Shown: positions 11,346-43,549 of the stretch, one piece after another
Numbering within the stretch: the stretch's first letter is position 1
How the letters are laid out: each line of letters starts with the position of its first letter
Assembly: GCA_934130045.1 (NCBI GenBank)
Contig: CAKOXI010000001.1
Coordinates: 14,900 to 78,899, forward strand
Reading direction: 5' to 3'
DNA: 64,000 nucleotides
DNA from: an uncultured Bacilli bacterium
GTDB lineage: Bacteria; Bacillota_I; Bacilli_A; RF39; UBA660
The notes under the pieces: model-generated
What the model saw: the letters and a program-made list of their open reading frames with translations, nothing else
What the model was told of the DNA's origin: nothing
Database searches by the model: none
Position numbers and translations under genes: made by a program

Positions 11346-11402
11346 TTCTATAGATAATTTGACTATTTTAGATTAAGGGTGTAATATTATTTTGGTGGTA
11401 AA

Positions 11403-25078: not shown

Positions 25079-25459
25079 ATGAAAAAAATATTGATTGTCG
25101 TTAATTTAATGATAATTGCATTTGCCATGAGTGGGTGTGGATGCAGCAAGAAAAATAAAATATTACAGTGTACTAGTGAACTAGATGAATATAATGAAAA
25201 AAAATATGTTGAAGCAAAATTTGAAGATGATTATTTAGTAAGTCAATCTATTGAAACTACAACAGTTTTTGATAGTGAAATAAATGCGACAAGATTTTAT
25301 GAAATGTACAAAGATTCTGACATGTATGAAACATCAATAAATGGATTAGAAGTTACTTTGAAACAAAATGCTGACAATTCCTCGACTGATGATATATTTA
25401 AATATGATAATTTCTATAATTCAATGATTGAAAATAATTTTAAATGTAAAAAAAAGTAA
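25079..25459 (+). CDS. Putative small lipoprotein
   Basis: The product begins MKKILIVVNLMIIAFAMSGCGCSK, with a lipobox. Confidence 0.5.
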   Translation: MKKILIVVNLMIIAFAMSGCGCSKKNKILQCTSELDEYNEKKYVEAKFEDDYLVSQSIETTTVFDSEINATRFYEMYKDSDMYETSINGLEVTLKQNADNSSTDDIFKYDNFYNSMIENNFKCKKK

Positions 25460-28400: not shown

Positions 28401-28921
28401 AATGTACTGAAGGGGATTGCTCTAATTATTGTGAAGTAGGCCATTGTTCTAATGATTCTAGTATTGGTGGAATGGAAATTATTTATAGGCAAGTTGATTT
28501 AAATAATCCATTTCCAGATAGAGAAGCTGGCAAAAATTGGCAAGGACATGAGAGTATAATAACACTTAATCGTGAAGTGGAAGGCTCAAATTTGTATAGT
28601 AGTAAACTTGAACCAGTTTATTCAATTACAATGACACCTGCAACTATAAAAGAAATTAGAAAGGTTAATGAAGCATTAAATTATGATTATTCATCAATTG
28701 GTACTATGATTTTTGATAAAGAAAAAATAACTGGTGGAGTAAGTTATATATTACGTGGAAGTTTAAAAAATATTGCTGAAAGTACTGGTGGAACATTTAC
28801 TATTAATTTAAATGATGCTAATACCGATGGAAGATTTGATGAAATTATGAATAATCCAAGTATAGACAGTTCTGGTAATTTAACAACTTGTCGTGAAATA
28901 GCAAGTGAGGTGATAGGATGA
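25475..28921 (+). CDS. Very large (1148 aa) secreted, extremely cysteine-rich protein; candidate pilus- or T4SS-associated adhesin or substrate
   Basis: The product has a signal peptide (FLIVTNVSAA). Dense CxxC and CC clusters occur throughout (DYCDSCGTYGTAGKCD, CCVPCNTS, DDCCNPTIEDCCEIG, CSNYCEVGHCSND). There is no LPxTG motif and no TM. Confidence 0.55.
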   Translation: MKKKRFLLLMIMFITNFLIVTNVSAAVGEWIGDYCDSCGTYGTAGKCDQVKYTNVGLFRVTFYLNGEKIGSSVNVSSNETYKDLAKNAKWHWGDGKTDIVSYASGQTLGTPVSGGLDTIVINGINVSNVQNKLSPSKNSKNVQKILTEAGITKFKFKNGKIYYTPDDGVCEEDYQIQMVVESMQVINWLCTTDGLDNHRWIGTPYELNNGLLQQGYDSHVGGNGYMSGSIVDKTLLSSLRIDKDVKIGNVAFTSVDDCLKIHIRGYKPTEGYGFNVYDLTGEIKIDCEPECCVPCNTSNPNLITAINSGKFACDPNNCDGEDEIATDIDSEGKLVCEPYIPDDCCNPTIEDCCEIGTKLCGGGIVTKSYYDKYCTSTCEYQIDPPTATTGVCTTEKLHSESKFTDGHFSENYWVYLNLFYQNKGAIYQEEMSSTYCETYCQEKTIIELPENYPYVNAGRYFTWTIADSKDSLIKETVYKNCATNIELDKWRKDYKNALDDINGNFYYVKNDTSPSGIENRAYELIDAYNKCMGDASSPSDEQKQAYRDGLNIDDIRDGVIQDINDWNSNLQNAKDDYGDGSYGSHWDNDFGCDAHHPGCFNDMSPKPTDDASIDAATEEKINEMFKQSRESVCITMFSDGTRRLTILANARGDSISIDAKSRNVTYIEKSLEPTLHNLISQLKNCQYEDNPEDGPELSLSEYFEKYLSNLNSTDLKLNLNYQTYLSEREYSNDDMIKNSNIIEPSKNGGCNQKDKNKCNPKDIFESNVCENKIIKANSNDGEGINEYGIGFIPSVLGEDSVYSKKQDISGNWKSYVFLKTTSENDFKLKNNINACICKDGTIIDAAEDGSCECPDMNSVTEIIADISDQYSCYFEWKTTYYYTTVEDGNLSVEYMTPTGLYPLQLDYSNIGTNNGHFSNFMRNGILGSVPHCQGGVCHYSDEDGKCYFIVNNEVITDGGKIYDNICPNGNCGDDDKCTEGDCSNYCEVGHCSNDSSIGGMEIIYRQVDLNNPFPDREAGKNWQGHESIITLNREVEGSNLYSSKLEPVYSITMTPATIKEIRKVNEALNYDYSSIGTMIFDKEKITGGVSYILRGSLKNIAESTGGTFTINLNDANTDGRFDEIMNNPSIDSSGNLTTCREIASEVIG

Positions 28922-29319
28922 AGGAATCACTTTGGAGTATATTTATTGTTGGGGTTGGAGTTACAATGATATTCTTTATATATTTTTTTCAATCTTTAAC
29001 TAATACAGATGAACAAAATTATGCAATGTTAAAAGAAACTGTTGAAGCTTCAATGTATGATTCCTTTGATCTTGCATCATATCATGCAAGTGGGGTATAT
29101 AGAATTGATGCTGAAAAGTTTGTCGAAAGTTTTTACAGGAGATTTGCTGAAAATGCAAATTTGGCTAGAACTTATGAAATAAAAATAATGGACATCAATG
29201 AGACTCCACCTAAAGTAAGTGTAAAGGTTTCTTCCAGTCAAAGCAGTAGCTTTACTGGTGAAATAATAAATTTTGATATTTCTAATACTATTGATGCAAT
29301 ATTAGAAACGCCATATTAA
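28918..29319 (+). CDS. Small N-terminally anchored membrane protein (pilin- or pseudopilin-like topology)
   Basis: Its ATG overlaps the stop of the giant upstream gene (ATGA). An N-terminal TM (IFIVGVGVTMIFFIYFF) is followed by a ~100-aa domain. Confidence 0.4.
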   Translation: MKESLWSIFIVGVGVTMIFFIYFFQSLTNTDEQNYAMLKETVEASMYDSFDLASYHASGVYRIDAEKFVESFYRRFAENANLARTYEIKIMDINETPPKVSVKVSSSQSSSFTGEIINFDISNTIDAILETPY

Positions 29320-29336
29320 AAAGAAGGAGAGAAAAT

Positions 29337-30152
29337 ATGAATAATGTAATTATTTCAGTAAAAAAATTTTTTACAAATAAGAATACTGTAACAATTCTTG
29401 GTGTAATTGTAATTATTTTAATTATTTATTTTGGTTACAATTCACAAATTAAAAAAGCAACTAACCCTATACAGGTTCCAGTTGCAAGTAAAACAATACA
29501 ACCTAGAACATTAATTACTGATGATATGATAAAATTAACAAGTATACCATCTGTATCAGTATCTACTAATGTAATACGTAGTAAGGCAAGTGTTGTTGGA
29601 AAATATACTGCTGTTAATACTGTAATACCAAGTGGTAGTATGTTTTATCAAGAAGCAGTTGTCAGTAAAAGACCTGATGCTGTTTTTGAAAATGTCAATG
29701 ATGGAGAAGTTTTATATAATTTTCCAGTTACTATGGCTTCAACTTATGGTAATTTGATTTTGCCTGGTAGTTATATTGATATTTATATGAAGGCTGTTAA
29801 TGGAACAAATGGATTAATGGTTGGCAAATTATTAGAAAATGTTAAAGTCTTAGCTGTTAAGGATAGTAGTGGTAATGATGTTTTTGAAGATACTTCAACA
29901 AATAGAACTCCTGCTTATATCTATTTTGGTGTAACAGAAGATATTAATATTTTATTACGTAAGGCTCAATATATGACAAGTAATTCTGTTGTGTTATTCC
30001 CTGTTCCACATGGTACAATTGTATCTGATGAGGATTTAGTAACTGAAGTTAGTACTCAGTATTTAAGAGATTTTATTAATGCTAATACAATTGTTATTGA
30101 TTCTACAAAAACTGATAATGTATCTAATACTACTACAAATGGTGAACAATAA
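29337..30152 (+). CDS. CpaB/RcpC-like pilus assembly protein (N-terminal TM plus SAF domain)
   Basis: An N-terminal TM is followed by a SAF-like segment (IQPRTLITDDMIKLTSIP...ASVVGKYTAVNTVIPSGSMF), matching the architecture of Flp-pilus CpaB. Confidence 0.5.
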   Translation: MNNVIISVKKFFTNKNTVTILGVIVIILIIYFGYNSQIKKATNPIQVPVASKTIQPRTLITDDMIKLTSIPSVSVSTNVIRSKASVVGKYTAVNTVIPSGSMFYQEAVVSKRPDAVFENVNDGEVLYNFPVTMASTYGNLILPGSYIDIYMKAVNGTNGLMVGKLLENVKVLAVKDSSGNDVFEDTSTNRTPAYIYFGVTEDINILLRKAQYMTSNSVVLFPVPHGTIVSDEDLVTEVSTQYLRDFINANTIVIDSTKTDNVSNTTTNGEQ

Positions 30153-31297
30153 TGAATGATAATATGTTTCAATCAATCGACTTTGGACCTTTAAAGGAGT
30201 ATCTTGATACTGATGATATCACCGATATTTCTTATAGTAATGGTGGACAAGTATGGTTGAAAACATTGTCAAGAGGAAATTATAGGGTAGAAAATCCTGC
30301 TATAAATAATCAGTTTATGGAAAAACTAGCATTTCAGTGTTCAAATGTTATGGGTAAAACATTTAATATGGCTCATCCGTTTTTGGATGCTGAAAGTGCT
30401 GAGTTACGTCTTAATTTTGTTCATGAATCTATTGCTAGAAATGGTATAGCTGTCGTAGTTCGTAAAACTCCAGCTAAAATTAGGCTTGAAAAAGAAAAAA
30501 TATTAAGAGAAAATTATATTACTCTTGATATACATAATTTTTTAGAATACTGTGTTTTAGGTCATTGCAACATAATTGTTTGTGGTGAAACTGGTTCTGG
30601 TAAAACTGAATTTGTTAAATATCTTGCTTCAAAAATTCGTGAAAATGAAAAGATAATAACAATTGAGGATACATTGGAACTTCACCTTGATAGAATATTT
30701 CCACATCGTGATATTGTTGCGATGAAAACGAATAATATTGCTTCATATACTGATGTATTGGTAACATGTATGCGCCAAAATCCTAAATGGATTTTATTAT
30801 CAGAGGTACGTAGTGCTGAAGCTGTTTTGGCGGTTCGTAACTCAATATCTTCAGGACACTATATTTTATCTACTATTCATGCTGATAAAGCTGCTTCAAT
30901 ACCAAGCCGTATGTATAGTTTGCTTGAGACTAATCAAGATATTGATCAATTTTTAAAGTCTATTCATAGATATGTTCAAATTGGTGTATATATACGTGGT
31001 TATCAAGATAAGAAAACAGGGCATTTTATTCGTGAAATAGCTGAAGTAACTGAATTTTATGTATCAAAAGATAATAAAGCTGAGTCAAATACAATTTATA
31101 GAAAAACTCCTGAGGGAAGTGTACATCGTAATAATCCAAGTCCATATTTAATTGATTATTTAGAGGCACAGGGAGTAATTTTACCTAAAGATATTATTGA
31201 TGTTGATAAAAATCAAAATGTAGTAGTTAATAATGATAATTTAAAAAACATTACAAATGAAAATAATACAGAAAATATAGAAGTTTTATTTGAATAG
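30152..31297 (+). CDS. TadA/CpaF-family secretion ATPase (VirB11/GspE superfamily)
   Basis: The product has Walker A IIVCGETGSGKTEF, an Asp box/Walker B IITIEDTLEL and a His box LSTIHAD. It is coupled to upstream and downstream genes. Confidence 0.75.
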   Translation: MNDNMFQSIDFGPLKEYLDTDDITDISYSNGGQVWLKTLSRGNYRVENPAINNQFMEKLAFQCSNVMGKTFNMAHPFLDAESAELRLNFVHESIARNGIAVVVRKTPAKIRLEKEKILRENYITLDIHNFLEYCVLGHCNIIVCGETGSGKTEFVKYLASKIRENEKIITIEDTLELHLDRIFPHRDIVAMKTNNIASYTDVLVTCMRQNPKWILLSEVRSAEAVLAVRNSISSGHYILSTIHADKAASIPSRMYSLLETNQDIDQFLKSIHRYVQIGVYIRGYQDKKTGHFIREIAEVTEFYVSKDNKAESNTIYRKTPEGSVHRNNPSPYLIDYLEAQGVILPKDIIDVDKNQNVVVNNDNLKNITNENNTENIEVLFE

Positions 31298-31308
31298 GAG
31301 GAGTTTGC

Positions 31309-32211
31309 ATGAATTTTCTAATGTTAATAATTATATCAGCTATTATAATATTTATTACTGTATACCGTAGAAATATTGGAACTGATGTTTATAAATTTTT
31401 TACAAATAAAGCTGGTTTAATTTATGATAAATTTGCCCCATATTCTTTTAAAATTATAAGAGAAAAGGTAAAAGATTTAGGTCAGGAATATACTCCAAGA
31501 CAATATGCAATTCAAATAGTTACTTTTGCAGTTTTTGGCTTTATGGTTTCATATATGTATTTTTACAGTATAATTATTTCTATTATGTATGCGTTAATAG
31601 CAATTGCTGTAATACCATATTTAACATACTTGCGTTGTAAAAGAGTATATAGTGAATTTATTTTTGAACAAATTCAGGTTTATACTACAAATACTATTAT
31701 GGAGTTTGCTACTACTCAATCCTTTGTTAAAGCTTTGGAAGGAGTAGTACAGTCAGGTGTACTTGAAGATCCTGTTAAGTCTGATGTTGAGTTGATGATC
31801 AGTATGGCCTATGAAAATGGTACAATTGAACAATCCTTAGTATATATGAATGAAAAATATGATTATTATGTTGTAAAAAATATGCATCAGTTGTTTTTAC
31901 AAATAACTAATGAAGGTAGTAAAGATTCTAGTGAAGCATTAGAGAATATGTCTCTTGATATAGATATGCTTGTAGAGGGAGTATATCGTGATAGGATGGA
32001 TCGTGCTAATTTCCATAAAAAATTTTTACAATTTGGTATAATTTTATATTTATTAGTTATGTTAGTTCAGTTTATGCTTGGAGTTGATTCCTATATTTCA
32101 TTATTAAGTAATTGGATGGTACAAGCAATACTTCATTTGATAATAGTTATTAATTCTTTATTTTTACTAAATGGAGAAAAATATTATAATGAGAATGTGG
32201 GTGGTGAATAA
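31309..32211 (+). CDS. TadB-like inner-membrane platform protein (T2SSF-type)
   Basis: It has an N-terminal TM plus two C-terminal TMs. The cytoplasmic segment carries T2SSF-like LEGVVQSGVL and GTIEQSLVYMNEKY elements. Confidence 0.5.
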   Translation: MNFLMLIIISAIIIFITVYRRNIGTDVYKFFTNKAGLIYDKFAPYSFKIIREKVKDLGQEYTPRQYAIQIVTFAVFGFMVSYMYFYSIIISIMYALIAIAVIPYLTYLRCKRVYSEFIFEQIQVYTTNTIMEFATTQSFVKALEGVVQSGVLEDPVKSDVELMISMAYENGTIEQSLVYMNEKYDYYVVKNMHQLFLQITNEGSKDSSEALENMSLDIDMLVEGVYRDRMDRANFHKKFLQFGIILYLLVMLVQFMLGVDSYISLLSNWMVQAILHLIIVINSLFLLNGEKYYNENVGGE

Positions 32212-32993
32212 TGAATTTTATAATAATTGCGGTAATTATTTTGTTTATATTAGAATATAACAAACAAATTGATACAAAAAAATTTATTAATGACATTGAC
32301 CCTTATTTTCGATTTTTAATGGAAGATGATTATAAATTTTTGTTAACCGTTAAATATGGTAATGATGTTGATTTGGACAAAATGTTTTCAAAAAGAATCA
32401 GAGATGGATTGGTAGTAATTGTTTTTATAATATTTTTGTTTTTATATAAATTAAATTTTTTATATGTTATTTTTTCCATAGTTGTTGGTTTTTTAGCATT
32501 CAAATTACCATACAATCAGTTAAAAAATTTTTATAAAAAAAATTTGTATAAAATTAATTTGATGTTACCTTATTATTTAAAAGGATTAGAAATTTTAATT
32601 CAACATTATACTGTTCCTGTTGCTTTGAGTCGTTCAGTGGAAACAGCTCCAGAAATTTTTCAACCTGGTTTACAAAGACTTGTAGCAAGAATTGAAGAAG
32701 GTGATTCATCTGTTGATCCATATATGGATTTTGCAAAAGAATATCCTGTTAGAGATTCGATGAGAATGATGAGACTATTATATCGTTTAGGACTTGGTAG
32801 TCAGGAAAATAAGCAAGAACAGTTAATAATGTTTTCTAAAACAGTTTCTACGTTACAAAATAAGTCTCGTGAACAAAAATATAAGGATCGTTTGGATCAT
32901 ATGGAAAATAAAACAATGCAGATGTTATTTGCAACAGGTGGTGGAATACTACTTTTGATGTTATTTGCAATGATGATGATGATGAAATTTTAG
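32211..32993 (+). CDS. TadC-like inner-membrane platform protein (T2SSF-type)
   Basis: Its start overlaps the TadB-like stop. The topology is TMs, a cytoplasmic helical domain (LQRLVARIEEGDS) and C-terminal TMs. It ends in an (ATG)5 repeat encoding MMMMM. Confidence 0.45.
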   Translation: MNFIIIAVIILFILEYNKQIDTKKFINDIDPYFRFLMEDDYKFLLTVKYGNDVDLDKMFSKRIRDGLVVIVFIIFLFLYKLNFLYVIFSIVVGFLAFKLPYNQLKNFYKKNLYKINLMLPYYLKGLEILIQHYTVPVALSRSVETAPEIFQPGLQRLVARIEEGDSSVDPYMDFAKEYPVRDSMRMMRLLYRLGLGSQENKQEQLIMFSKTVSTLQNKSREQKYKDRLDHMENKTMQMLFATGGGILLLMLFAMMMMMKF

Positions 32994-33066
32994 AGGAATT
33001 TGTTTATTTTATTTAGTTTATGATATAATATATACGTAATTAATTTTAAGTAAAGGTGGTGAGATA

Positions 33067-33285
33067 ATGAAAGAAGCTGCAAGTGAGGCAAATTTAACTG
33101 TTATTGCTATTGTATTAATAGGTGTTGTAGCTGCAGTAGTAACTCCACTTATTAGCGGGTTATTAAATGGCCAAGCAAAAAGATCATGTTGTAATTCTTT
33201 AGGTGGAGTTTATAGTGGTGGAAAATGTGAAGGTGTTGAAGAAGCCGAACTAAATACATGTATGGAAGGTCAAAAGAACGAATAA
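33067..33285 (+). CDS. Small (72 aa) Flp-pilin-sized membrane protein; candidate major pilin
   Basis: The product begins MKEAASEANLTVIAIVLIGVVAAVV, i.e. a short charged leader then a hydrophobic helix. Its position after tadC matches the flp position in Tad loci. A canonical G/XXXXEY motif is not evident. The tail has Cys pairs (SCCNS, GKCEG, NTCMEG). Confidence 0.35.
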   Translation: MKEAASEANLTVIAIVLIGVVAAVVTPLISGLLNGQAKRSCCNSLGGVYSGGKCEGVEEAELNTCMEGQKNE

Positions 33286-33308
33286 TATTTATTTGAAGGG
33301 AGTAACTT

Positions 33309-34028
33309 ATGAGGGAAGGTATTGGAAGTGTAGCATTATATAATATAATTATAGTATTTATTTTTGTAACTTTTTCTGTTTTAGCTGGAACCATGAGTTA
33401 CTCTAAAGCCTTTAAAACAAATAATAGAATTATAAATGCTATTGAAAAATATGAAGGATATAATGTTAATTCAAGCAACGAAATTGATGAAATCTTAGGT
33501 AATATTGGGTATAGATTAAGTGCATCAAAAAAATGTTCTAAAAAAAGAGGTTATGAAGCATTGAGTACTTTAAATAGTTCATATGATTTTTGTGTTTATG
33601 AAATACCAGAAGAAACACGTGAATGGAATGGTAGATATAGTACATATGGTGTTATTACCTATATCTATTTAGATATGCCAGTAGTTGGTGATTTTTTCAA
33701 AATACCTGTATATGGTCAAAGTAAACCAGTGTTTAGTTTTAATGCTAAAAATGCTCCATCGAGAGATGATTTGACTGTTACATATGATGTTGAGGTTGAG
33801 CCTGAATATTTGGCAAATCGTACTGATTGTTATATTATCTTTTCAAGAAGTAATCTACCTAAAACCTTTGATGATGTTTTTAATGTTATAAAAAGATTTT
33901 CTGATGGGGAAAGTGTTTCGGCTTTATTTAGCATTGAGGGCTTTAATATAAATGTATCTAATGGAAGATTAAATATAAGAGCCGATGGAGAATTAATTGA
34001 GTCTTTTTCGTACTGTATGATTGATTAA
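33309..34028 (+). CDS. TadE-like pseudopilin (N-terminal TM)
   Basis: An N-terminal hydrophobic segment (ALYNIIIVFIFVTFSVLAGTMSYSKAF) is followed by a domain paralogous to the next gene (YDFCVYEIPE...YGVITYIYLDMPVVG). Confidence 0.45.
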   Translation: MREGIGSVALYNIIIVFIFVTFSVLAGTMSYSKAFKTNNRIINAIEKYEGYNVNSSNEIDEILGNIGYRLSASKKCSKKRGYEALSTLNSSYDFCVYEIPEETREWNGRYSTYGVITYIYLDMPVVGDFFKIPVYGQSKPVFSFNAKNAPSRDDLTVTYDVEVEPEYLANRTDCYIIFSRSNLPKTFDDVFNVIKRFSDGESVSALFSIEGFNINVSNGRLNIRADGELIESFSYCMID

Positions 34029-34058
34029 TTTTATATTTTTAGTGATTGAGGTGATTAG

Positions 34059-34541
34059 ATGAAAGAGTCATTGGGTAATGCATTTGTTTTTGGATTTTTT
34101 ACAATTTTTGCTTTTTTAACTTTGTTTATTTTAATTACTGCAATCAATTATTCTAGGGCAGTAAAGATAAAAGATAGATTATTAACTTATGTTCAGTCAT
34201 ATGCTGAAAATCATGCTAATGTTGATAGTGATGGTGCTGTAGAAATTATAAATTTTGATGATCCTGAATTTAGGGATATGATTGATCATGAACTATCTGT
34301 TTTAGGATATAGAAGAAATGTTAATGTAACTAATACGACAGAATGTCCAAATCGTGAAGGGGCAATTATTGCAAATACTAGTAGTACTTATAAATACTGT
34401 ATTTATGCAAGGGAAACAAGCAGAGGATACTATTATGGGGTGATGACTTATATGTATTTTGATATACCTATAATTGGTACTACTTTAGAATTTCCAATAT
34501 ATGGTGAATCTAAAATAATTTATAATTTAGGTGATAAATAG
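34059..34541 (+). CDS. TadE/TadF-like pseudopilin, paralog of the preceding gene
   Basis: The product begins FVFGFFTIFAFLTLFILITAINYSRAV and contains YKYCIYARE...YGVMTYMYFDIPIIG. Confidence 0.45.
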   Translation: MKESLGNAFVFGFFTIFAFLTLFILITAINYSRAVKIKDRLLTYVQSYAENHANVDSDGAVEIINFDDPEFRDMIDHELSVLGYRRNVNVTNTTECPNREGAIIANTSSTYKYCIYARETSRGYYYGVMTYMYFDIPIIGTTLEFPIYGESKIIYNLGDK

Positions 34542-34553
34542 GAAGGTGTTAAA

Positions 34554-35564
34554 ATGAATGTAATTATTACTAATAAATATGCATCAATGTTGCAAGGACT
34601 TGATATAGATATTATCAAATCTTTAAATGGGGAATTTGATGCGGAAGAAATAATATCTACTTTTCAAAATTTTTATTTTCAAAGAATGATATTGGATATT
34701 ACTGCAATAAAAAATTATAGAGATATTAGGAATTTACAAAAACTTTCTATTGCCTTAGATATGGAAAAAGTAATTTTATTACTTGATGATTCTATTGAAA
34801 GTTCTTCAACAGAATATTTATCTAAGTTAATTTCGATGGGAATTTATAATTTTACTAAAAATGCTGAAGGAATTATGTATTTATATAATAATCCTAATTC
34901 ATATAGAGATGTTGCTCATATTCATCAACTTGAAATCGAAAAGGATGAAAAAGTTTCTGATGATTCTGGGGATACTTATGTGCGTGGTCGTGGAACTACT
35001 ATAATTGGTATAAAAAATATGACTAAGCATGCTGGAGCAACAAGTTTGATATATATGATGAAAAAGCAATTGTCTAAAAATTATTCTGTAATTGCAATTG
35101 AAGTTGATAAACGTGATTTCATGTATTATGGTGATAAGGAAATGGTTAATACTACAAGTGTTGAGGTTGGTAATACTATTGCTAAATATAGTGATAGAGA
35201 TATAGCACTTGTTGATATAAATGACAGTAAACAAGCTGAAAGTATTTGTAATACAGTAATTTGTTTATTAGAACCATCTATTATTAAACTTAATAAATTA
35301 ATGATGTTAGATAGACATGCTTTTTCTAAACTAAAAGGAAAAGATGAAAAATATAAAATAGTTTTAAATAAGAGTTTATTAAGTTCTAAGGATGTATTAG
35401 AATTTGCCTATGAGGCAAAAACAAAAGTTGTTTATAATTTGCCACCACTTGATGATCGTGAAAGAAATATTCATGCATTGAATGGATTTTTAATTAAACT
35501 TGGATTTGAAGTGGAAGAAGATTTTGAAGAACAAAAAAAGAATAAAATATTAGGACTTTTTTAA
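34554..35564 (+). CDS. Possible TadZ/CpaE-like (ParA/MinD-fold) protein with a degenerate P-loop
   Basis: Its position after the pseudopilins is suggestive. The segment GRGTTIIGIKNMTKHAGATSLIYMMKKQL resembles a deviant Walker A in which the GKGGxGKT consensus has been lost. Confidence 0.3.
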   Translation: MNVIITNKYASMLQGLDIDIIKSLNGEFDAEEIISTFQNFYFQRMILDITAIKNYRDIRNLQKLSIALDMEKVILLLDDSIESSSTEYLSKLISMGIYNFTKNAEGIMYLYNNPNSYRDVAHIHQLEIEKDEKVSDDSGDTYVRGRGTTIIGIKNMTKHAGATSLIYMMKKQLSKNYSVIAIEVDKRDFMYYGDKEMVNTTSVEVGNTIAKYSDRDIALVDINDSKQAESICNTVICLLEPSIIKLNKLMMLDRHAFSKLKGKDEKYKIVLNKSLLSSKDVLEFAYEAKTKVVYNLPPLDDRERNIHALNGFLIKLGFEVEEDFEEQKKNKILGLF

Positions 35565-35659
35565 AAAAATGATATAAATTGTAAATAAACCGTTTGTTTT
35601 ATTGATATTTGTTGACTTTTGTAGTATTTTATTGTATTATTTTTTTAGGAGGAATTATT

Positions 35660-36004
35660 ATGATGAATTTATTTAATGTATTGGCATCTTGTGCTGGTGG
35701 TACAATTTCTTTTGATGCTGTTTTACCATCAACAATTAGTGCGATTGTTAATATTTTAAAAATTGCTATTCCAATTATGGTTATTATATTTGGACTTATT
35801 GATTTGGGAAAAGCAGTTATGGCTCAAAAAGAAGATGATATTAAGAAAAATCAAGGATTACTTATCAAAAGAGTTATAGTTGCAGTATTTGTTTTCTTTG
35901 TTGTTGCAATTGTTCAATTTGTTATTGGAATTGTTGGTGGATCTGATAGTGAAAATATTACATCTTGTATTAATTGTTTTATCAATAATGATTGTGGCAA
36001 TTAG
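35660..36004 (+). CDS. Small two-TM hairpin membrane protein, family member 1 of 5 (KAVMAQKEDDIKK loop); VirB2/TrbC-like topology
   Basis: Its start is MMNLF after the RBS TAGGAGG. The product reads TM1 (IPIMVIIFGLIDLGKAV), a polar loop, TM2 (VIVAVFVFFVVAIVQFV) and a Cys-containing tail CINCFINNDCGN. Confidence 0.5.
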   Translation: MMNLFNVLASCAGGTISFDAVLPSTISAIVNILKIAIPIMVIIFGLIDLGKAVMAQKEDDIKKNQGLLIKRVIVAVFVFFVVAIVQFVIGIVGGSDSENITSCINCFINNDCGN

Positions 36005-36014
36005 TATAAATTAT

Positions 36015-36037
36015 AGAAGCAATTTGCTTCTTTTTTC
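36015..36037 (+). terminator. Rho-independent terminator
   Basis: A hairpin agaagcaa-tt-tgcttct is followed by T6. Confidence 0.55.
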
Positions 36038-36058
36038 TTTTTATAAATTATTGTTGTA

Positions 36059-36087
36059 TTGTTAAAAATTTATATATATGTTATAAT
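36059..36087 (+). promoter_or_regulatory. Sigma-A-type promoter with an extended -10, upstream of the small-pilin-like gene and the T4SS genes
   Basis: The -35 TTGTTA (36059-36064) is 17 nt from a TG-n-TATAAT (36079-36087). Confidence 0.45.
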
Positions 36088-36128
36088 TTATCTATGGATA
36101 TGTATGAATATAAAAATGGAGGATTTTT

Positions 36129-36476
36129 ATGGAAAAAATAAAAAAAGTTTTATTTATTTGTTGTTTTTTTAGTATTTTATTTATTCCTACAGTCTTTGCA
36201 GAAAGCTGTAAGGAATTATTAGGTACTAATGCAGCTCGAATGATCAAGGATTTTTATTATATGGTTGGATATGTTGTTGCTGCGGTAGCAGTAATATTAG
36301 GAATACTTGATTTTTTTAAAGTATTTACTGGCGGAGATAAAAGTGAATTAAAGGGCGTTGCACAAAAATTTGCAAAGAGAATTATAGCACTTGCTATATT
36401 CTTGATGTTACCAGGTTTAGTTGAATGGATTTTAGAAATTGCTGGAATAACTAACCATGGAGGAACTTGTTTATAA
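36129..36476 (+). CDS. Small secreted two-TM membrane protein, divergent member of the same hairpin family
   Basis: The product has a signal peptide (FIPTVFAES) and two hydrophobic helices (VVAAVAVILGILDFFKVF, IIALAIFLMLPGLVEWI) around a polar loop, and ends GGTCL. Confidence 0.45.
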   Translation: MEKIKKVLFICCFFSILFIPTVFAESCKELLGTNAARMIKDFYYMVGYVVAAVAVILGILDFFKVFTGGDKSELKGVAQKFAKRIIALAIFLMLPGLVEWILEIAGITNHGGTCL

Positions 36477-36510: not shown

Positions 36511-38658
36511 ATGGATACTGTCGGAGTAAGAGGTTTTTTTGCATCTGTTGATGTTTTTATTGCGTCAATGATAGAAAAAGTATATGGCTTAATTCTTTTA
36601 ATTGCTGACGTAGACATTTGGTCTAAGGTTGGAAATAAAATATTTAACAAAGTTTTTTCATTGATTGCTGTTTTTATGTTATTTAAAGCAGCTATAATTG
36701 TAATACAATATGTTATTAATCCAGATGAGTTAATATCATCTAAAAAGGGTGGTGTGAAATTTTTAAAAAATATTGTTATTTCTTTATTTATGCTTACAAT
36801 GGCTACAACTGTTTTTGAAAAATTATATCAATTACAGGGCATTGTTTTAAATGAAAATGTACTTGGTAGAATTTTTTTGGAAGATTCGAAAGAAAATGCA
36901 ACTGAACAATCTAAAGATTTTAATAATATTGGAAAAGAAGTCGCATATTACATCTTTAGTTCTTTTCTTGATTATAGTAGAGATGGTGCTTTAGCTCCTG
37001 TTTTTCCTGATTATTGTAAAAATATTTTTGTGGAAGAGGATTATGAGTTAAATAAAGAAACATATTATGTTTCTTATATTAATCCATATAATGGCTTTGT
37101 AATTAATGTTGCAAGACCGGTTTATACATGTGCATCGTATGTTACTCATGGGCAAAATGTTGGAATGTCAAACTTAGTTTATGATTCGAGGATTGATTCA
37201 AGATTTAATAGACTTGATGATGGTACAGCTATAAATTGGTCTGGTAGCATTTTGGGTAGTTGTGGTTCTCAAACTGGTGGATATTATACTTGTAAATCAT
37301 ATTTGTGTCAGTCATATAATTGTGGCTCTAAAAATGGAGTTTATCTTGTTAATTTAATTAATAATGCAAGGGAAAATAAGGACGTAAAATTAATGCTTTC
37401 CGATGATATTTTGTCATCGACTGAGAGTGATTATATATTTGCACCTGGTATTATGTCTGGCTCAAATTATTCATCTTCTTTATCGGATTCTATTCAAATT
37501 TGCAAATGTTATAGTTGTTTTGCTCCATATGTAAAAGATTCTTATGATTGTAATACATCAGATGGAGATTTTATTTTCGAATATAAATTTGGTGTTTCAT
37601 CATTAGTAGGTTTTATTATATTAATTATGATAATTGTTCTTGCTGTTGATGTTGCAATAAGAACTGTAAAGTTAGCATTTTTGGAAATTATTGCCCCAAT
37701 TCCAATTGTTTCTTTTATGGATATTAAAGAAAGCGGTTTATTTAAAAGTTGGGTAAAATTATTTATTAATGTATATTTAGAATTATTTTTAAAGTTGGGG
37801 TCTATATATTTTGGTTTTTTCTTTATTAAATTACTTATGAATGGAAGTTTTTCTGATATTCCTGCTTTTCAAAATGTTTTCGGAAGATTTTTTATGATTT
37901 TTGGTTGTTTACTTTTTGGAAAAAAATTTCCAGATTTTGTTAGCCAGATGATTGGACTTGGTGGAGATACTGGTGTAGGCAGTTTCTTTAAAACGTCTTT
38001 AAAATTTGTTACTGGAGCAGGAGCTATGGCTGTTGCAGGTATTGGTGGTGCTACTTCAAATTTGGCTTCAGGTGTAGAAAAGATTAGCAGTGCTAATGGT
38101 ACTAAAGCAAAATTGTTACAAACTGGTAAAACTGTTGCTAGTGTCTTTGGCGGTGCTGGTAGTGCTGCAGTTAGAACAATGGCTAATCAAATTTCATCTA
38201 AAGGTAGTGGAACTAAAAATAATATTATGCGTGGAATATATGGTAGCTCATATGCGAGAAAACAAAATGAAATGGGAAATCATATTGGTAATCGTGCTTT
38301 AGATAGTGCTAGGGATTTATTTCAAATAAATAATAAAGAAAAATTATCTACTGAAGATATGAAAAAAGAACTAGAAAATATTAAAAAAGAAAAACTAGAA
38401 AATGATAATATGATTAATTCTTTACTTAATAATGAAAGTAATGCAACTAGCATAAGAAATGCTTTTGAATTAGATGATAAAAATAATAGATTGTATAAAA
38501 ATTATGAGGAATATTCAAATAATGTTTCAAATTCTATAAGTGAAGAGTTATATAATTCTTATGATTATTATTATAATTTAAGGGATGAACATAATAAAAG
38601 AATTAAAGAATTGACTGAAGAAATTGAACATAACGAAGCGAATGATTCTTATAAATAA
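36511..38658 (+). CDS. VirB6-like polytopic channel protein (ConG/TcpH/Orf15-type), copy 1
   Basis: The 715-aa product has multiple TMs in two clusters, a Cys-rich periplasmic loop and a long hydrophilic coiled-coil C-tail. Its N-terminal ~100 aa are paralogous to the next gene. Confidence 0.5.
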   Translation: MDTVGVRGFFASVDVFIASMIEKVYGLILLIADVDIWSKVGNKIFNKVFSLIAVFMLFKAAIIVIQYVINPDELISSKKGGVKFLKNIVISLFMLTMATTVFEKLYQLQGIVLNENVLGRIFLEDSKENATEQSKDFNNIGKEVAYYIFSSFLDYSRDGALAPVFPDYCKNIFVEEDYELNKETYYVSYINPYNGFVINVARPVYTCASYVTHGQNVGMSNLVYDSRIDSRFNRLDDGTAINWSGSILGSCGSQTGGYYTCKSYLCQSYNCGSKNGVYLVNLINNARENKDVKLMLSDDILSSTESDYIFAPGIMSGSNYSSSLSDSIQICKCYSCFAPYVKDSYDCNTSDGDFIFEYKFGVSSLVGFIILIMIIVLAVDVAIRTVKLAFLEIIAPIPIVSFMDIKESGLFKSWVKLFINVYLELFLKLGSIYFGFFFIKLLMNGSFSDIPAFQNVFGRFFMIFGCLLFGKKFPDFVSQMIGLGGDTGVGSFFKTSLKFVTGAGAMAVAGIGGATSNLASGVEKISSANGTKAKLLQTGKTVASVFGGAGSAAVRTMANQISSKGSGTKNNIMRGIYGSSYARKQNEMGNHIGNRALDSARDLFQINNKEKLSTEDMKKELENIKKEKLENDNMINSLLNNESNATSIRNAFELDDKNNRLYKNYEEYSNNVSNSISEELYNSYDYYYNLRDEHNKRIKELTEEIEHNEANDSYK

Positions 38659-38757: not shown

Positions 38758-40887
38758 GTGGGTGCTTGGTTTCATGGTATTATAAACATGCTTATGTCTG
38801 GTATTATTACTTTTTTGTGCTGGGTAGTCAATAATGTTTACAATTTAATATTACTATTGGCGGATATAAATATTTTTAGTAATGATGCAATATCAGCTAT
38901 GAAAGATAAAGTTTTTTCACTTATAGCATTATTTATGGTATTTAAGTTAGCTTTTTCTATAATACAATATATTGTTGATCCTGATAAATTAACAGATAGT
39001 ACAAGTGGTGCACAAAAATTACTTGTTCGTATTGTTATTTCTCTTGCATTATTAACTGTTGTTGATACTGCATTTGAAAAAGCTATGGAGTTTCAAAATA
39101 TTATTTTACAAGAAGGAATTTTAAATAAAATTATTTTTGGAACATCATCTGGTGATGATTCTCCTACACTGGAAGATTCAAATACTTCAATTGATGAACT
39201 TGAAAAAAAGAAACAAACTCCATCGTGGTTTATATCATATACATTAGTTTCGGCATTTGTTGATTGGAATGATGATGCATTTGATGATAAATTAAATGGT
39301 GATACATGTGAGGTTTCTCCATTTATTAAGGTTATTGGTAAATACAAGGAGGCTGATATTAGTAAGTTAACTGGTGGAAAATGTTATGAGTTATTTGTAA
39401 AAGAAATAGGTAATAGTGTAAATAAGGATTTTAAAAGTTATTTAAAGTCTTATGATATAGGAAGAGCTATTTCGAAGGTTGCAAGGGCAAAACGTAACAG
39501 TGAACTTATGATTAGTTTAAATTTTTTTACCCCATTGTTTCTTATAATTTTTATTGTTGTTTTAGTAATTATTGCAGTTAATGTGGCAGTTAGGGCAGTT
39601 AAGTTATCTGCACTTATGATTATTGCACCTTTGCCTATTATTTCTTATATTGATCCTAAAGAAAAAGATGGTTTATTTAAAAAATGGTATAAATTAGTAT
39701 TTAAAACATATTTAGACCTATTTATACAGCTTGTATCATTTTATTTTGCAGTATTTTTAATAACTAATATTATAGGGCAAAATTCTTTGACAGGTTATTC
39801 TGGTACAACATATGAAATTGCTAAACATCCATTATTATATATATTTATAATTATTGGTATATTTCTGTTTGCAATGCAATTACCAAAATTAATTTCTGAT
39901 TTAACTGGTGCTAAAACTGATGGCATTGCTAAGGGAATTAAATCTGGTATGGGGATTCTTGGAACTACTGCTGTTGCGGGAGTTGGCGGTGCCGTTGGTG
40001 GTATGGTAGCTGGTTGGCAACATGGAACTGGATTTGGAAAAGTTGGACATGCTTTAGCTTCTGGTGTTACTGGTGGACTTGGTGCACAGGTACGAGGTAT
40101 ATGGAATGGTAGAAACGGTGGAAATGTTTTTGCTAATGCTGGAAAAGCTATAACTGCATCTGGTGTTGCTAGAAATGCAAATTGGGTTCGTGATTCAAAT
40201 GGTAACCGTGTTAGAAGTCGTATTCCATTTGTTTCATCTGCCGCTAATTCTTTTGGAAAAATGGCAGGTTTAAAAAATCCAACTGTTGGTGTTGGTAGGT
40301 TAAAGGCAGATAAAAAATATGCTGATGAAGCATTGAAGAGTGCTCAAACAGCTTTACAGGATCAAATGACTGCTAGAAATGATGCTTTTACGCGTCAAGT
40401 TAATGCTGAAAATGAAATGAATCGTTTACGTGGTCAATTAAATAGTAAACTTAATAACTTGGATGGAATTGAGGGAGGATTTAATAACTCTACAGGTGAT
40501 TTTGAATTAAAATATAATAATCAAAATATGAGTATACGTAATTTGGATTATGGACAATTTAGAAGTGCAATGTATGAAAATAGAAATCGTATTAACAGTA
40601 AGAGAGCAAATGGAGAATTGGATGATCAAAACTATAATAGAATTATGAGTAATATTGATTCATTATCTCGTATGTCTGAAAGTGAATTTAATTCATATAG
40701 AGGTGAAATATCTGATTTATCTAGTAGACTTTCAAGTAGTAGAGAGGTTTATGATAATGCTACAACTGCTTTAAATAATGCTAATAATCAAATAAGTTCA
40801 ATTCGTTCATTTATTGATTCTGCTCAAAAACAAAGTGATAGTTCCTCAAAAAGCCTTGATACTTTAAATAAGTCGCTTGGTAAATAA
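38758..40887 (+). CDS. VirB6-like polytopic channel protein, copy 2
   Basis: The 709-aa product starts with GTG and has the same architecture as copy 1. Its C-terminal half is Gly-rich and S/N-rich with coiled coil. Confidence 0.5.
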   Translation: MGAWFHGIINMLMSGIITFLCWVVNNVYNLILLLADINIFSNDAISAMKDKVFSLIALFMVFKLAFSIIQYIVDPDKLTDSTSGAQKLLVRIVISLALLTVVDTAFEKAMEFQNIILQEGILNKIIFGTSSGDDSPTLEDSNTSIDELEKKKQTPSWFISYTLVSAFVDWNDDAFDDKLNGDTCEVSPFIKVIGKYKEADISKLTGGKCYELFVKEIGNSVNKDFKSYLKSYDIGRAISKVARAKRNSELMISLNFFTPLFLIIFIVVLVIIAVNVAVRAVKLSALMIIAPLPIISYIDPKEKDGLFKKWYKLVFKTYLDLFIQLVSFYFAVFLITNIIGQNSLTGYSGTTYEIAKHPLLYIFIIIGIFLFAMQLPKLISDLTGAKTDGIAKGIKSGMGILGTTAVAGVGGAVGGMVAGWQHGTGFGKVGHALASGVTGGLGAQVRGIWNGRNGGNVFANAGKAITASGVARNANWVRDSNGNRVRSRIPFVSSAANSFGKMAGLKNPTVGVGRLKADKKYADEALKSAQTALQDQMTARNDAFTRQVNAENEMNRLRGQLNSKLNNLDGIEGGFNNSTGDFELKYNNQNMSIRNLDYGQFRSAMYENRNRINSKRANGELDDQNYNRIMSNIDSLSRMSESEFNSYRGEISDLSSRLSSSREVYDNATTALNNANNQISSIRSFIDSAQKQSDSSSKSLDTLNKSLGK

Positions 40888-40916: not shown

Positions 40917-41240
40917 ATGTATGGAAGATTTTTAATTCCTGCAAACTCGAAAAAATCGGCATTGATACTTGGTTTATTTAAGCCTGCCGATTTAGTTATA
41001 ATATCGATAGGTGTGATTTTGTCATTTATTTTATTACTTACATTACCTATTGAACAAATGACATATACGATAATTGCTATTTTTCCTGCTTCATTTGCTG
41101 CTTTCTTAGTTTTTCCAATGGCATATTATCACAATGTAAGAACATTCATTGTTATACTTTTTAAGTATTTAACATCTAGACAAAAATTTGTATGGAAGGG
41201 TTGGTGTTATATAGATGAAGTCAACAAATTCAAAAAGTAA
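40917..41240 (+). CDS. VirB3-like small membrane protein (PrgI/ConD/Orf17-type)
   Basis: The 107-aa product has two TMs and lies immediately upstream of, and overlapping, the VirB4 ATPase, the conserved position for VirB3-like proteins. The RBS is AAGGAGG. Confidence 0.5.
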   Translation: MYGRFLIPANSKKSALILGLFKPADLVIISIGVILSFILLLTLPIEQMTYTIIAIFPASFAAFLVFPMAYYHNVRTFIVILFKYLTSRQKFVWKGWCYIDEVNKFKK

Positions 41241-41775
41241 ATATACTAATGATGTATTTGTTCCAATTAAAAGCATAACAAATGGTATGATTATTTTGGA
41301 TAATAATTTAAAAGTTTCTGGTGTTAAGATTAGACCAAGAAATATATTTATTCTTGAACAAGAAGCGCAAGATATTATTATTTCAAATCTAAAAAATGTT
41401 TATAATATGATTGATTATGAATTTTGGATAATTGCAGCTGATAGACCAGTTGATATTCATGTATATTTATCTCAATTGCAACTTCTTTATAATTCTGTAA
41501 CAAGTCAAGCAAAAAGAAAATTAATAACGCAAGATATTCAAAAAGCAAATATGTTTATGAATAATAATGTTGTTGATACTGAGTATTATTTGCTTTTCAA
41601 ACATAAAGATATTGATGTTATACAAAAGAGAATTCGTAATTTAATTAATAATTTTGCAAATGCTGGTTTAACTACTGCGCAGACATCCAATGATGATTTA
41701 AGAATGGTATTAGATAACTTTTTAAATGGTGGTCAAACCACTACGTTTGGGACGGTGATGAGTGATGGATATTAA
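41215..41775 (+). CDS. VirB4-family T4SS ATPase, N-terminal fragment (frame 1)
   Basis: The 186-aa fragment ends 14 nt inside the next ORF. Together the two parts reconstitute a ~780-aa VirB4/TraE/ConE-like protein. Confidence 0.55.
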   Translation: MKSTNSKSKYTNDVFVPIKSITNGMIILDNNLKVSGVKIRPRNIFILEQEAQDIIISNLKNVYNMIDYEFWIIAADRPVDIHVYLSQLQLLYNSVTSQAKRKLITQDIQKANMFMNNNVVDTEYYLLFKHKDIDVIQKRIRNLINNFANAGLTTAQTSNDDLRMVLDNFLNGGQTTTFGTVMSDGY

Positions 41776-43549
41776 GAGTCAAATAGCTCCAAAAGGGCTT
41801 GAATTTAAAGCTGCAGATTTTGTTATAAGTGATAAATATGCTTGTATATTAACAGTAGTTTCTTATCCTAAATATATAGAACCTGGTTATTTATCAAATT
41901 TAACTAGTATGTCAGGTATTAAGGTTGTTATTAAACATTTACCATTACCTTTTGATATCTTAAGAAGAATGCTTAATAAAGAAATTGCTGACTTGAAACA
42001 AAGATATCATGAAGAAAATGATAAAACAATTCAAGAAAGAATTAGACAGGATTATGAATCATTGGAACAATTTATTTCTCAAATTGCTGCAAGTCAGTCA
42101 AAAATATATGATTTCCAAATGCATATTATGGTTACTGCTGATTCACAAGAAGAATTAGCAGGAAAAAAATTCCAAATAAAAAACTATTTGGAAGCAATGG
42201 AAATGAAAGCATTTCCACTTAGATTTGAACAAGAAAAAGTTTTAAAATCGATGATTCCAATATTTCCTAAACAAGATATTGAAGAAAGAATTGGTACACC
42301 AATGCCTACACCAACAATGGCGGCAATGTATCCATTTATTTTCGATAGTATAAAAGATCCAGGGTTAGCTACTTTACTCGGAGTTGATTTTTCTGGTGGT
42401 GTAATATTATTTAATCAATTTTTATATCAAATAAAAAAAGAACACAATAGAAATAATGCTAATTTAATTATTTTAGGTACATCTGGTTCTGGTAAATCAA
42501 CTGCTGCTAAATTAATGCTTCGTTCTCATATTAGAAATAATTGCAAAATTATTTATATAGATCCAGAGGGCGAATTAGAGGAAATGGCTAAAATGTATGA
42601 TGGTGATTTTATGGATTTAGGTAAGGGTGGAGAATATGGTATGATTAATCCACTTGAGGTTGTAATGGATGCAGATGAAGATGAAATTAAAGAGGGATTG
42701 GGATATACTGTATTAACAAGAACTTTACAAACTATAAAAGCTTTTTTAAAGTATTATGATCCTTCAATTGAAGAAGATGTTTTAACAATGTTTAGTGAAG
42801 TTGTTCAGGACACATATAGACGTTTTGGTATGAATTTTGATACTGATTTTTCTAAATTTAAATCTGAAGATTATCCAACATTTAGGGATGTATATGCGAC
42901 TATAAAGGGACGTATTTTATCAATGCCTGAGCAAAGCCATGAAAAAGATATATTGGAAAAACTTGAAATTAAGATTAGACCAATTACAAAAGAATTAAAG
43001 TATTACTTTGATGGTCATACAACTATATCTCCTAATAGTGATTTTATTGTATTTAATATAAGAGAACTTATGAATGCTGATACAAATATTAGAAATGCAT
43101 TATTCTTTAATATTTTGAAATATGCATGGGGATTAACTTTGGATAAAAGTGTAAATTCAGTTCTAACTGTTGATGAAGCTCACGTACTTTTAAGTGGAAA
43201 TAATACATTAGGGGCTGACTTCTTAGCTCAAATTCAAAGACGTGCTAGAAAATATAATACTGGTACAATAATTATTACACAACAACCAAGTGATTTTAGT
43301 GATCCAAATGTTATTACACAGGGAAAAGCTATATTTGATAATGCTTCATATTATTTAATAATGGGATTAAAAAAACAAGCAGTAGAAGATTTAGCAAAAT
43401 TAATTGATTTAAATGAAAATGAAAAGGAAAGTATTAAACGTTACAATCAAGGAGAAGCACTATTTGTTTGTGGTAGTAGACGTATGAGAATAAATGTTGT
43501 TGTTACCGAACAAGAATTAGATTCGTTTGGTAGCGGTGGAGGTTTGTAG
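41762..43549 (+). CDS. VirB4-family T4SS ATPase, C-terminal fragment (frame 2) carrying the Walker A/B motifs
   Basis: The product has Walker A LIILGTSGSGKST, Walker B LTVDEAH and a CagE/TrbE/VirB4 C-domain. It overlaps the upstream fragment at 41762-41775 in the +1 frame. Confidence 0.75.
   Translation: MMDIKSQIAPKGLEFKAADFVISDKYACILTVVSYPKYIEPGYLSNLTSMSGIKVVIKHLPLPFDILRRMLNKEIADLKQRYHEENDKTIQERIRQDYESLEQFISQIAASQSKIYDFQMHIMVTADSQEELAGKKFQIKNYLEAMEMKAFPLRFEQEKVLKSMIPIFPKQDIEERIGTPMPTPTMAAMYPFIFDSIKDPGLATLLGVDFSGGVILFNQFLYQIKKEHNRNNANLIILGTSGSGKSTAAKLMLRSHIRNNCKIIYIDPEGELEEMAKMYDGDFMDLGKGGEYGMINPLEVVMDADEDEIKEGLGYTVLTRTLQTIKAFLKYYDPSIEEDVLTMFSEVVQDTYRRFGMNFDTDFSKFKSEDYPTFRDVYATIKGRILSMPEQSHEKDILEKLEIKIRPITKELKYYFDGHTTISPNSDFIVFNIRELMNADTNIRNALFFNILKYAWGLTLDKSVNSVLTVDEAHVLLSGNNTLGADFLAQIQRRARKYNTGTIIITQQPSDFSDPNVITQGKAIFDNASYYLIMGLKKQAVEDLAKLIDLNENEKESIKRYNQGEALFVCGSRRMRINVVVTEQELDSFGSGGGL

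Follow-up and report, generated by a model that had tools for sequence, protein, structure and literature searches.

Are the two small membrane proteins encoded directly before the VirB6-, VirB3- and VirB4-like genes of a Bacilli type IV secretion system (T4SS) the pilin-like subunits of that system? This question is raised by a 64,000-nucleotide stretch of contig CAKOXI010000001.1 (GenBank assembly GCA_934130045.1) from an uncultured bacterium of the RF39 group, to which we refer as the window. A preliminary description of this DNA, made from its letters alone, had proposed that the two proteins (here P1, of 114 amino acids (aa), and P2, of 115 aa) and three further paralogs are hairpins of two transmembrane (TM) helices with the topology of VirB2/TrbC pilins, starting from the premise that no such pilins were known from Gram-positive T4SSs. 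Reviews did until recently describe VirB2 homologs as absent from Gram-positive T4SSs, with the exception of Patescibacteria. However, this premise is outdated, as the Patescibacteria arrays, PrgF of Enterococcus faecalis and the NF045849 family have already been named in this way; the inference itself agrees with what experiments are now establishing. We conclude, by analogy and with moderate confidence, that all five window proteins serve a monoderm, MPF-FATA-like T4SS as VirB2-type (pilin-like) subunits. This is the most likely reading of the locus, well supported by topology and synteny though short of proof.

Two hairpin genes precede the VirB6/VirB3/VirB4 block

P1 and P2 were found where the preliminary description had placed them, immediately before the VirB6/VirB3/VirB4 genes (Table 1), with a gap of 35 nt between the P2 stop codon and the first VirB6-like gene. 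A ribosome-binding site (AGGAGG, 35648-35653) lies 6 nt before the P1 start, and because orthologs elsewhere begin at the same residue as P1, a longer, TTG-initiated open reading frame (ORF) is not the P1 gene. As had been described, each protein has two hydrophobic helices joined by a charged loop and ends in a short tail with Cys. Given a 27-sequence alignment, AlphaFold2 agreed with this plan in predicting a helical hairpin for P1 (helices 21-54 and 58-92, mean pLDDT 73.7). P1 and P2 are only 15% identical, yet comparison of their profiles shows them to be homologs (hhalign 93%, E 2.7e-7), and the Cys just past the predicted P2 cleavage site, with which mature P2 would begin as ESC (it ends in GGTCL), aligns with the invariant Cys11 of P1.

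Two of the features attributed to every copy held for some copies only. An N-terminal leader had been assigned to each protein; P2 does have a canonical Sec signal peptide, but P1 and the three paralogs lack a canonical leader and have only about ten residues before the invariant Cys. The KAVMAQKED loop used to characterise the family is literally present in P1 and nearly so in the 271-aa paralog (KAVMAQQED), but not in the other copies. Two other protein classes were considered and rejected. A lipoprotein was suggested by the resemblance of LASC to a lipobox, but only about ten residues precede it and there is no basic n-region; a type IV (Flp) pilin was ruled out by the two TM helices, the lack of a prepilin motif and the presence of a separate Flp-like gene in the neighbouring Tad-like pilus module.

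The three further paralogs at 51.9-53.8 kb were recovered by a hidden Markov model (HMM) of the family at E 1e-21 to 1e-28, in agreement with the original proposal, although they are not all small as had been stated: two of them run to 271 and 226 aa via Cys-rich C-terminal extensions. Identity to P1 among the other window copies was 15-43%. The copy best conserved across species was P1, for which a word-indexed search gave 64 homolog clusters, none with a precomputed Pfam domain or name, and a look-up of its exact sequence gave no record; the same search from P2 gave two relatives only.

A large family with a common topology

Related loci were collected by scanning one genome per species, which returned more than 197 relatives, and 80 genome loci were kept. 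When the family HMM was run on 84 related loci and the window, it recovered 226 ORFs of the family (220 distinct, 102-605 aa), and because these members almost always occupy the same position, the hairpin ORFs are more than chance occurrences. All 80 kept loci come from metagenome-assembled genomes (MAGs) of uncultured gut bacteria, mostly labelled Bacilli, Tenericutes/Mycoplasmatota, Erysipelotrichaceae or Acholeplasmataceae (a few of the bins are evidently mislabelled), and one related locus sits on a 1.2-Mb circular contig. The family grew to 10,025 clusters at 50% identity (E <=1e-3), or 5,987 at E <=1e-10, when 1.84 billion representatives were searched exhaustively with a profile; in these clusters the hairpin is often C-terminal within proteins of 150-540 aa. 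Cluster look-up found no source that names these hairpin proteins.

Averaged over the 220 distinct members, the loop carries a net charge of +3.0 and about six Lys or Arg residues; the N- and C-tails are net negative, and a Cys on the N-terminal side of TM1 occurs together with a Cys on the C-terminal side of TM2 in all members except one (219/220). Long members consist of a signal peptide, an extracellular region of 100-500 aa and then the hairpin, and the gene at the P2 position in other genomes often encodes such a protein (350-600 aa, in which a large extracellular domain lies between the signal peptide and a C-terminal hairpin). As P2 and the long members have signal peptides, their orientation is N-out. 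Charge and signal-peptide logic together show a predicted topology in which both termini are outside and the short basic loop between the two TM helices is cytoplasmic, as in VirB2, TrbC and TraA. Conservation is highest within the loop and where the helices end (P39, G46, D49, K52, K63, K71, R72 and F80 in HMM column numbering), a pattern that would fit a conserved machine, in the cytoplasm or the membrane, that recognises these proteins.

Some representatives depart from the simple plan. Several have two hairpin matches within one protein, and in a few there are domains of the esterase/lipase type (Abhydrolase_2, Peptidase_S9, GDSL) or Listeria-Bacteroides repeats, which we assume to lie in the extracellular extension. 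Across species, the ATPases VirB4, VirD4 and CpaF are 69-83% identical, compared with 40-50% for the hairpins and only 25-32% for VirB6, and on these identities the motors evolve far more slowly than the parts at the surface and in the membrane.

The hairpin genes keep their place before VirB6

The preliminary description had proposed co-occurrence with T4SS genes in other genomes as a check on the pilin reading, and the homologs do accompany such genes. VirB6 was found in 60 of the 80 loci, and in 59 of these 60 a family member ended 18-219 bp ahead of it; VirB4 was found in 44 of the 50 loci having at least 8 kb of downstream sequence. A similar arrangement exists on plasmids, as both Bacillus thuringiensis pBMB68 (pAW63/pXO2-type) and a Mycoplasmatota plasmid encode a two-TM protein, with or without a signal peptide, directly upstream of the VirB6-like gene.

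The number of copies per locus varied from one to six. Up to six copies were present in loci L011, L036, L066 and L084, sometimes flanking on both sides the gene for a 336-aa protein that is the last of the Tad-like module, and L084 has five small copies in tandem (9624-11586) and no T4SS genes within 10 kb.

Relationship to named pilin families

The Pfam family T4SS_pilin (PF18895), itself a two-TM hairpin of about 70 residues, was the commonest Pfam match among 27 close members of the family (18/27 at E <=1) and the top match by both count and score among 126 representatives (48/126 at E <=0.01, best E 1.4e-7). The alignments were in register across the whole 71-position profile. By extrapolation the best E corresponds to about 32 bits, which is above the gathering score, though for some representatives only. 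We regard this match of PF18895 to the family as suggestive.

The second commonest match, among NCBIfam models, was NF045849 (Mbov_0395 family pilin-like conjugal transfer protein), which matched 12 of the 27 members weakly (best E 0.0014) and was the top match for the proteins at the equivalent position on pBMB68 and on the Mycoplasmatota plasmid. None of the five window copies was reported for this model at E <=0.5 (its cut-off is 40 bits). The protein P0074, which is 56% identical to the protein at the same position of pBMB68, has a precomputed PF18895 annotation.

Structure-based searches were not informative. A profile search of PDB sequences returned only noise from TM5-TM6 of rhodopsin, Foldseek gave nothing at E <1, and the fold searches yielded only generic helical hairpins. 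A helical hairpin, as modelled for P1, is too generic for an informative fold search.

Comparison with known systems

The closest precedent in description is PrgF of the E. faecalis plasmid pCF10, which is VirB2-like and essential for conjugation (ter Beek et al., bioRxiv 10.64898/2025.12.18.695078, December 2025 preprint). PrgF has 75 aa, two TM helices, a charged loop and no signal peptide, and is encoded two genes upstream of the VirB6 homolog; PrgF and VirB6 were modelled as a pilus, and the loop residues behaved as lumen-lining (bioRxiv 10.64898/2025.12.18.695078). In the same work, 95% of 174 representative Gram-positive plasmids, pXO1 and pXO2 included, had small two-TM candidates near virB6; reliable pilus-like models were obtained for 71%, and there was almost no sequence conservation among these VirB2-like proteins. 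With their length, two TM helices, PrgF-like topology and position, P1 and P2 fall within the limits applied by those authors (50-150 aa, two TM helices, near virB6), whose definition also calls for a confident pilus-like AlphaFold model of 10 copies with 5 VirB6 (ipTM above 0.65). Like P1, PrgF is a small two-TM protein with a short charged loop and no signal peptide that is encoded ahead of VirB6/VirB3/VirB4 in a system of the MPF-FATA type. However, it has no detectable sequence similarity to the family (hhalign 0.6%), its best Pfam match is Maff2 and not T4SS_pilin, and it is a single-copy protein without the Cys pair, whereas the family described here is multi-copy and chromosomal and often has large extracellular domains. 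PrgF (L088, 11546-11773) and the pAW63-type hairpin protein of pBMB68 (L086, 6649-7029) have a common loop motif, MS(N/D)(D/N)DP, and PrgF may thus be related to the Bacillus plasmid hairpin protein, whose close relative has the PF18895 annotation.

Patescibacteria encode 2-11 divergent VirB2-like proteins in arrays close to virB4, and in Southlakia these arrays are essential (PMC12102498; PMC12857230). The systems of Southlakia epibionticum and Nanosynbacter lyticus TM7x resemble the present one in having several divergent hairpin paralogs next to a chromosomal monoderm-type T4SS, with no relaxase detected nearby (here by Pfam and NCBIfam across 22.3-48.2 kb), a type IV-pilus-class system present and a small host genome. 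The window likewise has a tandem array of divergent hairpins near virB4, with two copies at the T4SS and three satellites. In contrast, the hosts belong to another phylum (here Bacillota/Mollicutes-like gut MAGs), and the likeness is one of published description.

The classical pilins VirB2, TrbC and TraA (PF04956 and relatives) share with the family the N-out and C-out orientation, the basic cytoplasmic loop and a gene position at the head of the VirB6/VirB3/VirB4 block, but neither a sequence match nor a specific structural match was found, and here there is no outer membrane, VirB5, VirB7, VirB9 or VirB10, and no sign of a cyclase or a long leader. In Mycoplasma integrative and conjugative elements (ICEs), from which NF045849 is named, the downstream genes correspond as well: those of the window match the Mbov_0396 (transmembrane) and Mbov_0397 (VirB4) models NF045889, NF045848 and NF045975, and the consecutive Mbov locus numbers suggest the same gene order in these ICEs. 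The matches to NF045849 are weak, however, so the window and family proteins are not its equivalogs.

Among plasmids, the closest VirB4 was that of the pAW63/pXO2/pBT9727-type plasmids of the Bacillus cereus group (29% identity over 99% of its length). The block of these plasmids has the same constituents, namely VirD4 (CD1115), a small hairpin, TrbL, PrgI, VirB4, a wall hydrolase, DUF5411, SAF/RcpC and a CpaF-type Tad-like module, and the pairing of a T4SS with a Tad-like module was found both on pBMB68 and on the Mycoplasmatota plasmid. However, the pAW63-type plasmids have a MobP3 relaxase, of which no homolog was found here, and their hairpin protein is not detectably similar to ours; tblastn of P1 against plasmids gave no match.

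A model for the hairpin proteins

If these proteins are pilin-like subunits, they would insert in the membrane with both ends outside and the positive loop in the cytoplasm, P2-type and long members entering via Sec with cleavage of their signal peptide and P1-type members translocating their short N-tail only. Outside the cell, the Cys ahead of TM1 and at least one Cys beyond TM2 would then probably clamp the two ends together, and this clamp may be the disulfide counterpart of the head-to-tail cyclisation of TrbC/VirB2. Polymerisation, and the nature of any substrate, we infer by analogy: the VirB4 ATPase and the VirB6 platform would draw the subunits out of the membrane and build from them a stacked tube across the wall, with the loops toward the lumen and the tails outward. 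We propose P1 as the major subunit on account of its conservation, the highest of all copies, its strong ribosome-binding site and the terminator-like hairpin of its own. The P2-type, long and satellite copies may be minor or alternative subunits with variable extracellular domains, which could serve as adhesin-like or antigenically variable decoration.

Several results weigh against this reading. The window copies reach no Pfam cut-off at all, as their PF18895 scores (P1 11.5, P2 16.5 and the 271-aa paralog 19.6 bits) are below the gathering score of 26.6 bits, and the 111-aa and 226-aa paralogs had no PF18895 match. Unrelated multi-TM families came near the PF18895 scores (DUF621 5.4e-6; 7tm_1 1.9e-4), and because they score nearly as high, part of the PF18895 signal is compositional. 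The similarity to TrbC/VirB2/TraA that the preliminary description had suggested looking for was detectable neither by sequence nor by fold; PF04956 (TrbC/VirB2) was never matched by the window copies or the 27 close members at E <=1, and hhalign comparisons of the family with the pAW63-type hairpins, the Mycoplasmatota plasmid protein and PrgF all gave less than 1%. As judged from these alignments, the family is without statistically solid homology to any experimentally characterised pilin. In addition, of the 64 loci whose downstream sequence was long enough, 13 are satellite arrays without a nearby T4SS gene, the extracellular domains of 100-500 aa on many members could not all fit a tightly packed pilus, and a pilus has so far been seen on no member of the lineage. 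What stands of the pilin reading as first proposed is therefore its topology and its synteny, and not homology or structural proof.

The extracellular domains also bear on a different reading, in which the hairpin is a non-polymerising membrane anchor for variable surface proteins (adhesins, enzymes) and the T4SS neighbourhood reflects co-regulation or a role in docking or adhesion. An N-terminal extension of ~50-500 aa is present in about one third of the 220 members, in most cases preceded by a signal peptide; Cys-rich C-terminal extensions take its place in a few, two of the window paralogs among them, and a few have the esterase/lipase or Listeria-Bacteroides repeat domains mentioned above. 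The great diversity of the family at 50% identity and the satellite arrays apart from any T4SS gene would suit an anchor too. However, the most conserved and most widespread members, those of the P1 type (105-135 aa), have no extracellular domain to hold, and the cytoplasmic loop is where conservation is highest, an unusual pattern for a passive anchor. The near-constant place directly before VirB6 and the in-register, full-length matches to PF18895 also argue against an anchor, and we consider this reading unlikely.

Pilin-like subunits of the T4SS are also to be preferred to subunits of the adjacent Tad-like pilus machine, for which the hairpins might serve as a platform or accessory component. 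The gene most often found beside the hairpins (70 of 84 loci) is the one for the 336-aa protein at the end of the Tad-like module, and hairpin arrays flank it on both sides in several genomes, as would be expected of such a component. In locus L022, however, the hairpin precedes VirB6 with neither a Tad gene nor the 336-aa gene within 10 kb upstream, and in pBMB68 and the Mycoplasmatota plasmid the Tad-like module lies kilobases from the hairpin-VirB6 pair. The module moreover already has Flp-like and TadE-like pilins of its own, and a two-TM hairpin is not a known component of Tad systems. Membership in the Tad-like machine is thus improbable. Holin-like, bacteriocin-immunity or generic small membrane proteins with no link to secretion, a kind of unrelated family that the preliminary description had itself named as a refutation, would share the generic architecture (small, two TM helices, a charged loop) that yields only generic hairpins in fold searches, but are scarcely credible here, given that tblastn of P1 found no match in 50,697 phage records, that 2.9 million viral contigs held one weak relative only (against more than 197 in genomes), that BFVD viral structures gave no match at E <=0.001, that no lysis, endolysin, phage or bacteriocin genes lie nearby, that T4SS_pilin was the best-scoring and most frequent Pfam family, and that the near-strict synteny with VirB6 effectively refutes them.

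Gene context and transcription signals

The features of the locus are collected in Table 1. The window is very AT-rich (19-32% GC), with 26-31% GC within the T4SS/Tad locus and 19-25% outside it, and its long ORFs stay open throughout in the standard bacterial code (table 11).

Table 1. Features of the hairpin genes and of the surrounding T4SS/Tad locus (positions in the window).
Feature	Position	Strand	Remarks
Tad-like pilus module (context)	28918-35564	+	DUF5411, RcpC/SAF, CpaF-type ATPase, two TadB/C-like, Flp-like (72 aa), two TadE-like, 336-aa protein
Promoter-like site upstream of P1	35612-35640	+	TTGACT-17-TATTAT; 10/12 positions matched; weak evidence
P1, 114-aa hairpin protein	35660-36004	+	Invariant Cys11 in short N-tail; TM1 and TM2 around loop GKAVMAQKEDDIKKNQGLLIKR; tail SCINCFINNDCGN
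Terminator-like hairpin and T-run directly 3' of P1	36015-36041 (hairpin 36015-36031)	+	2 such sites found vs 0.2 expected
Promoter-like site upstream of P2	36059-36087	+	Extended -10, TTGTTA-17-TG-TATAAT; weak evidence
P2, 115-aa paralog	36129-36476	+	Sec signal peptide MEKIKKVLFICCFFSILFIPTVFA followed by ESC, predicted cleavage after VFA; GGAGG upstream
VirB6/TrbL-like polytopic membrane protein, copy 1, 715 aa	36511-38658	+	Pfam TrbL_4 1.4e-8; NCBIfam MMCAP2_0566 and Mbov_0396 ICE transmembrane families
VirB6/TrbL-like protein, copy 2, 709 aa	38758-40887	+	Coiled-coil C-terminus; Pfam TrbL_4 9.7e-13; NCBIfam matches
VirB3-like small membrane protein	40917-41240	+	Positions 2-95 of NF045975 (894-aa Mycoplasma ICE VirB4 model)
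VirB4 N-terminal (TraC-like) domain, separate ORF	41215-41775	+	NF045975 positions 96-276, 1e-16; orthologs with PF26593 TraC-like
VirB4 ATPase	41762-43549	+	NF045975 2e-106 (positions 295-891); Pfam P-loop_TraG/AAA_10; 80-83% identical across species
Cell-wall hydrolase (M23 peptidase), functional VirB1 analog	43563-45281	+	Pfam Peptidase_M23 5.8e-11
VirD4 coupling protein	45991-48117	+	Pfam T4SS-DNA_transf 2.8e-54; NCBIfam CD1115 family 293 bits, cut-off 250
Satellite paralog, 271 aa	51924-52739	-	N-terminal hairpin (KAVMAQQED loop) and Cys-rich C-terminal extension; family HMM 1.5e-26; T4SS_pilin E 0.001, 19.6 bits
Satellite paralog, 111 aa	52742-53077	-	Hairpin alone; family HMM 9.8e-28
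Satellite paralog, 226 aa	53123-53803	-	Hairpin and Cys-rich C-terminal extension; family HMM 1.5e-21

The hairpin genes had been credited with a promoter of their own. Promoter-like hexamers are indeed present upstream of both genes, but seven such matches were found where 9.9 were expected from shuffled sequence, which is not above chance in AT-rich DNA, so the sites are weak evidence for such a promoter. The terminator-like hairpin after P1 would yield a separate P1 transcript or serve as an attenuator. Rfam and transfer RNA (tRNA) scans found nothing relevant close to the hairpin genes.

The two VirB6-like genes are tandem and "extended", with about 710 aa each and long hydrophilic or coiled-coil C-terminal parts; their N-terminal regions are alike, and an 85-nt repeat (36649-36733 and 38908-38992) is 75% identical between them. 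VirB4 is split at 40917-43549 into three consecutive, slightly overlapping ORFs that are colinear with NF045975. In the Tad-like module, which adjoins the T4SS on its upstream side, the Flp-like protein has a Cys-rich tail, the 336-aa protein is without a family match, and no prepilin peptidase was seen. No convincing family match was obtained for the ORFs at 22731-24335, 24408-25064, 25079-25459 (weak lipoprotein-type N-terminal matches only) and 25475-28921 (1148 aa). Beside the satellite hairpin array, the region 50900-51800 holds short ORFs only, which resemble degraded transposase pieces (...MNWDEFKALK...).

The flanks of the locus are housekeeping genes (ScpA/B, tRNA-Leu, rhodanese, RmuC and RNase R), and no att-like or flanking direct repeats were detected around it. 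Across 22.3-48.2 kb neither Pfam nor NCBIfam identified a relaxase or an integrase, though VirD4 is present and several ORFs there are unannotated, and a MobP3 homolog was found neither in the window nor in the 84 related loci, the search covering loci and not whole genomes. We raise tentatively, and at a low likelihood, the broader idea that the locus is not a mobile conjugation module but a vertically kept, relaxase-less chromosomal T4SS plus Tad-like apparatus of reduced-genome gut Bacilli (RF39/Mollicutes-like), in which diversified disulfide-clamped pilins and pilin-adhesin fusions would build a wall-spanning conduit for contact-dependent exchange between cells.

Significance

What is new here is a large unannotated family in uncultured gut Bacilli; the kind of protein itself has been known since 2023-2025. 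Its unusual features are the arrays, the fusions, the putative Cys clamp and a chromosomal locus apparently without a relaxase. The idea of VirB2-type subunits in monoderm T4SSs, published only in 2023-2025, was thus recovered independently from raw sequence, and it is extended to about 10,000 unnamed clusters in uncultured gut Bacilli with small genomes. For annotation, the genes should be labelled T4SS pilin-like, and PF18895 could be widened to include them. The paired extracellular Cys residues, the tandem and satellite arrays and the extracellular-domain fusions offer handles on how a pilus-like conduit may be built and diversified without an outer membrane, and the rapid evolution of the surface parts, set against the high conservation of the ATPases, suggests that partners or hosts exert selection. 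If the idea of a relaxase-less apparatus is true, this would be a second, independent "lifestyle" T4SS of the Patescibacteria type, and the first whose pilins bear large displayed domains.

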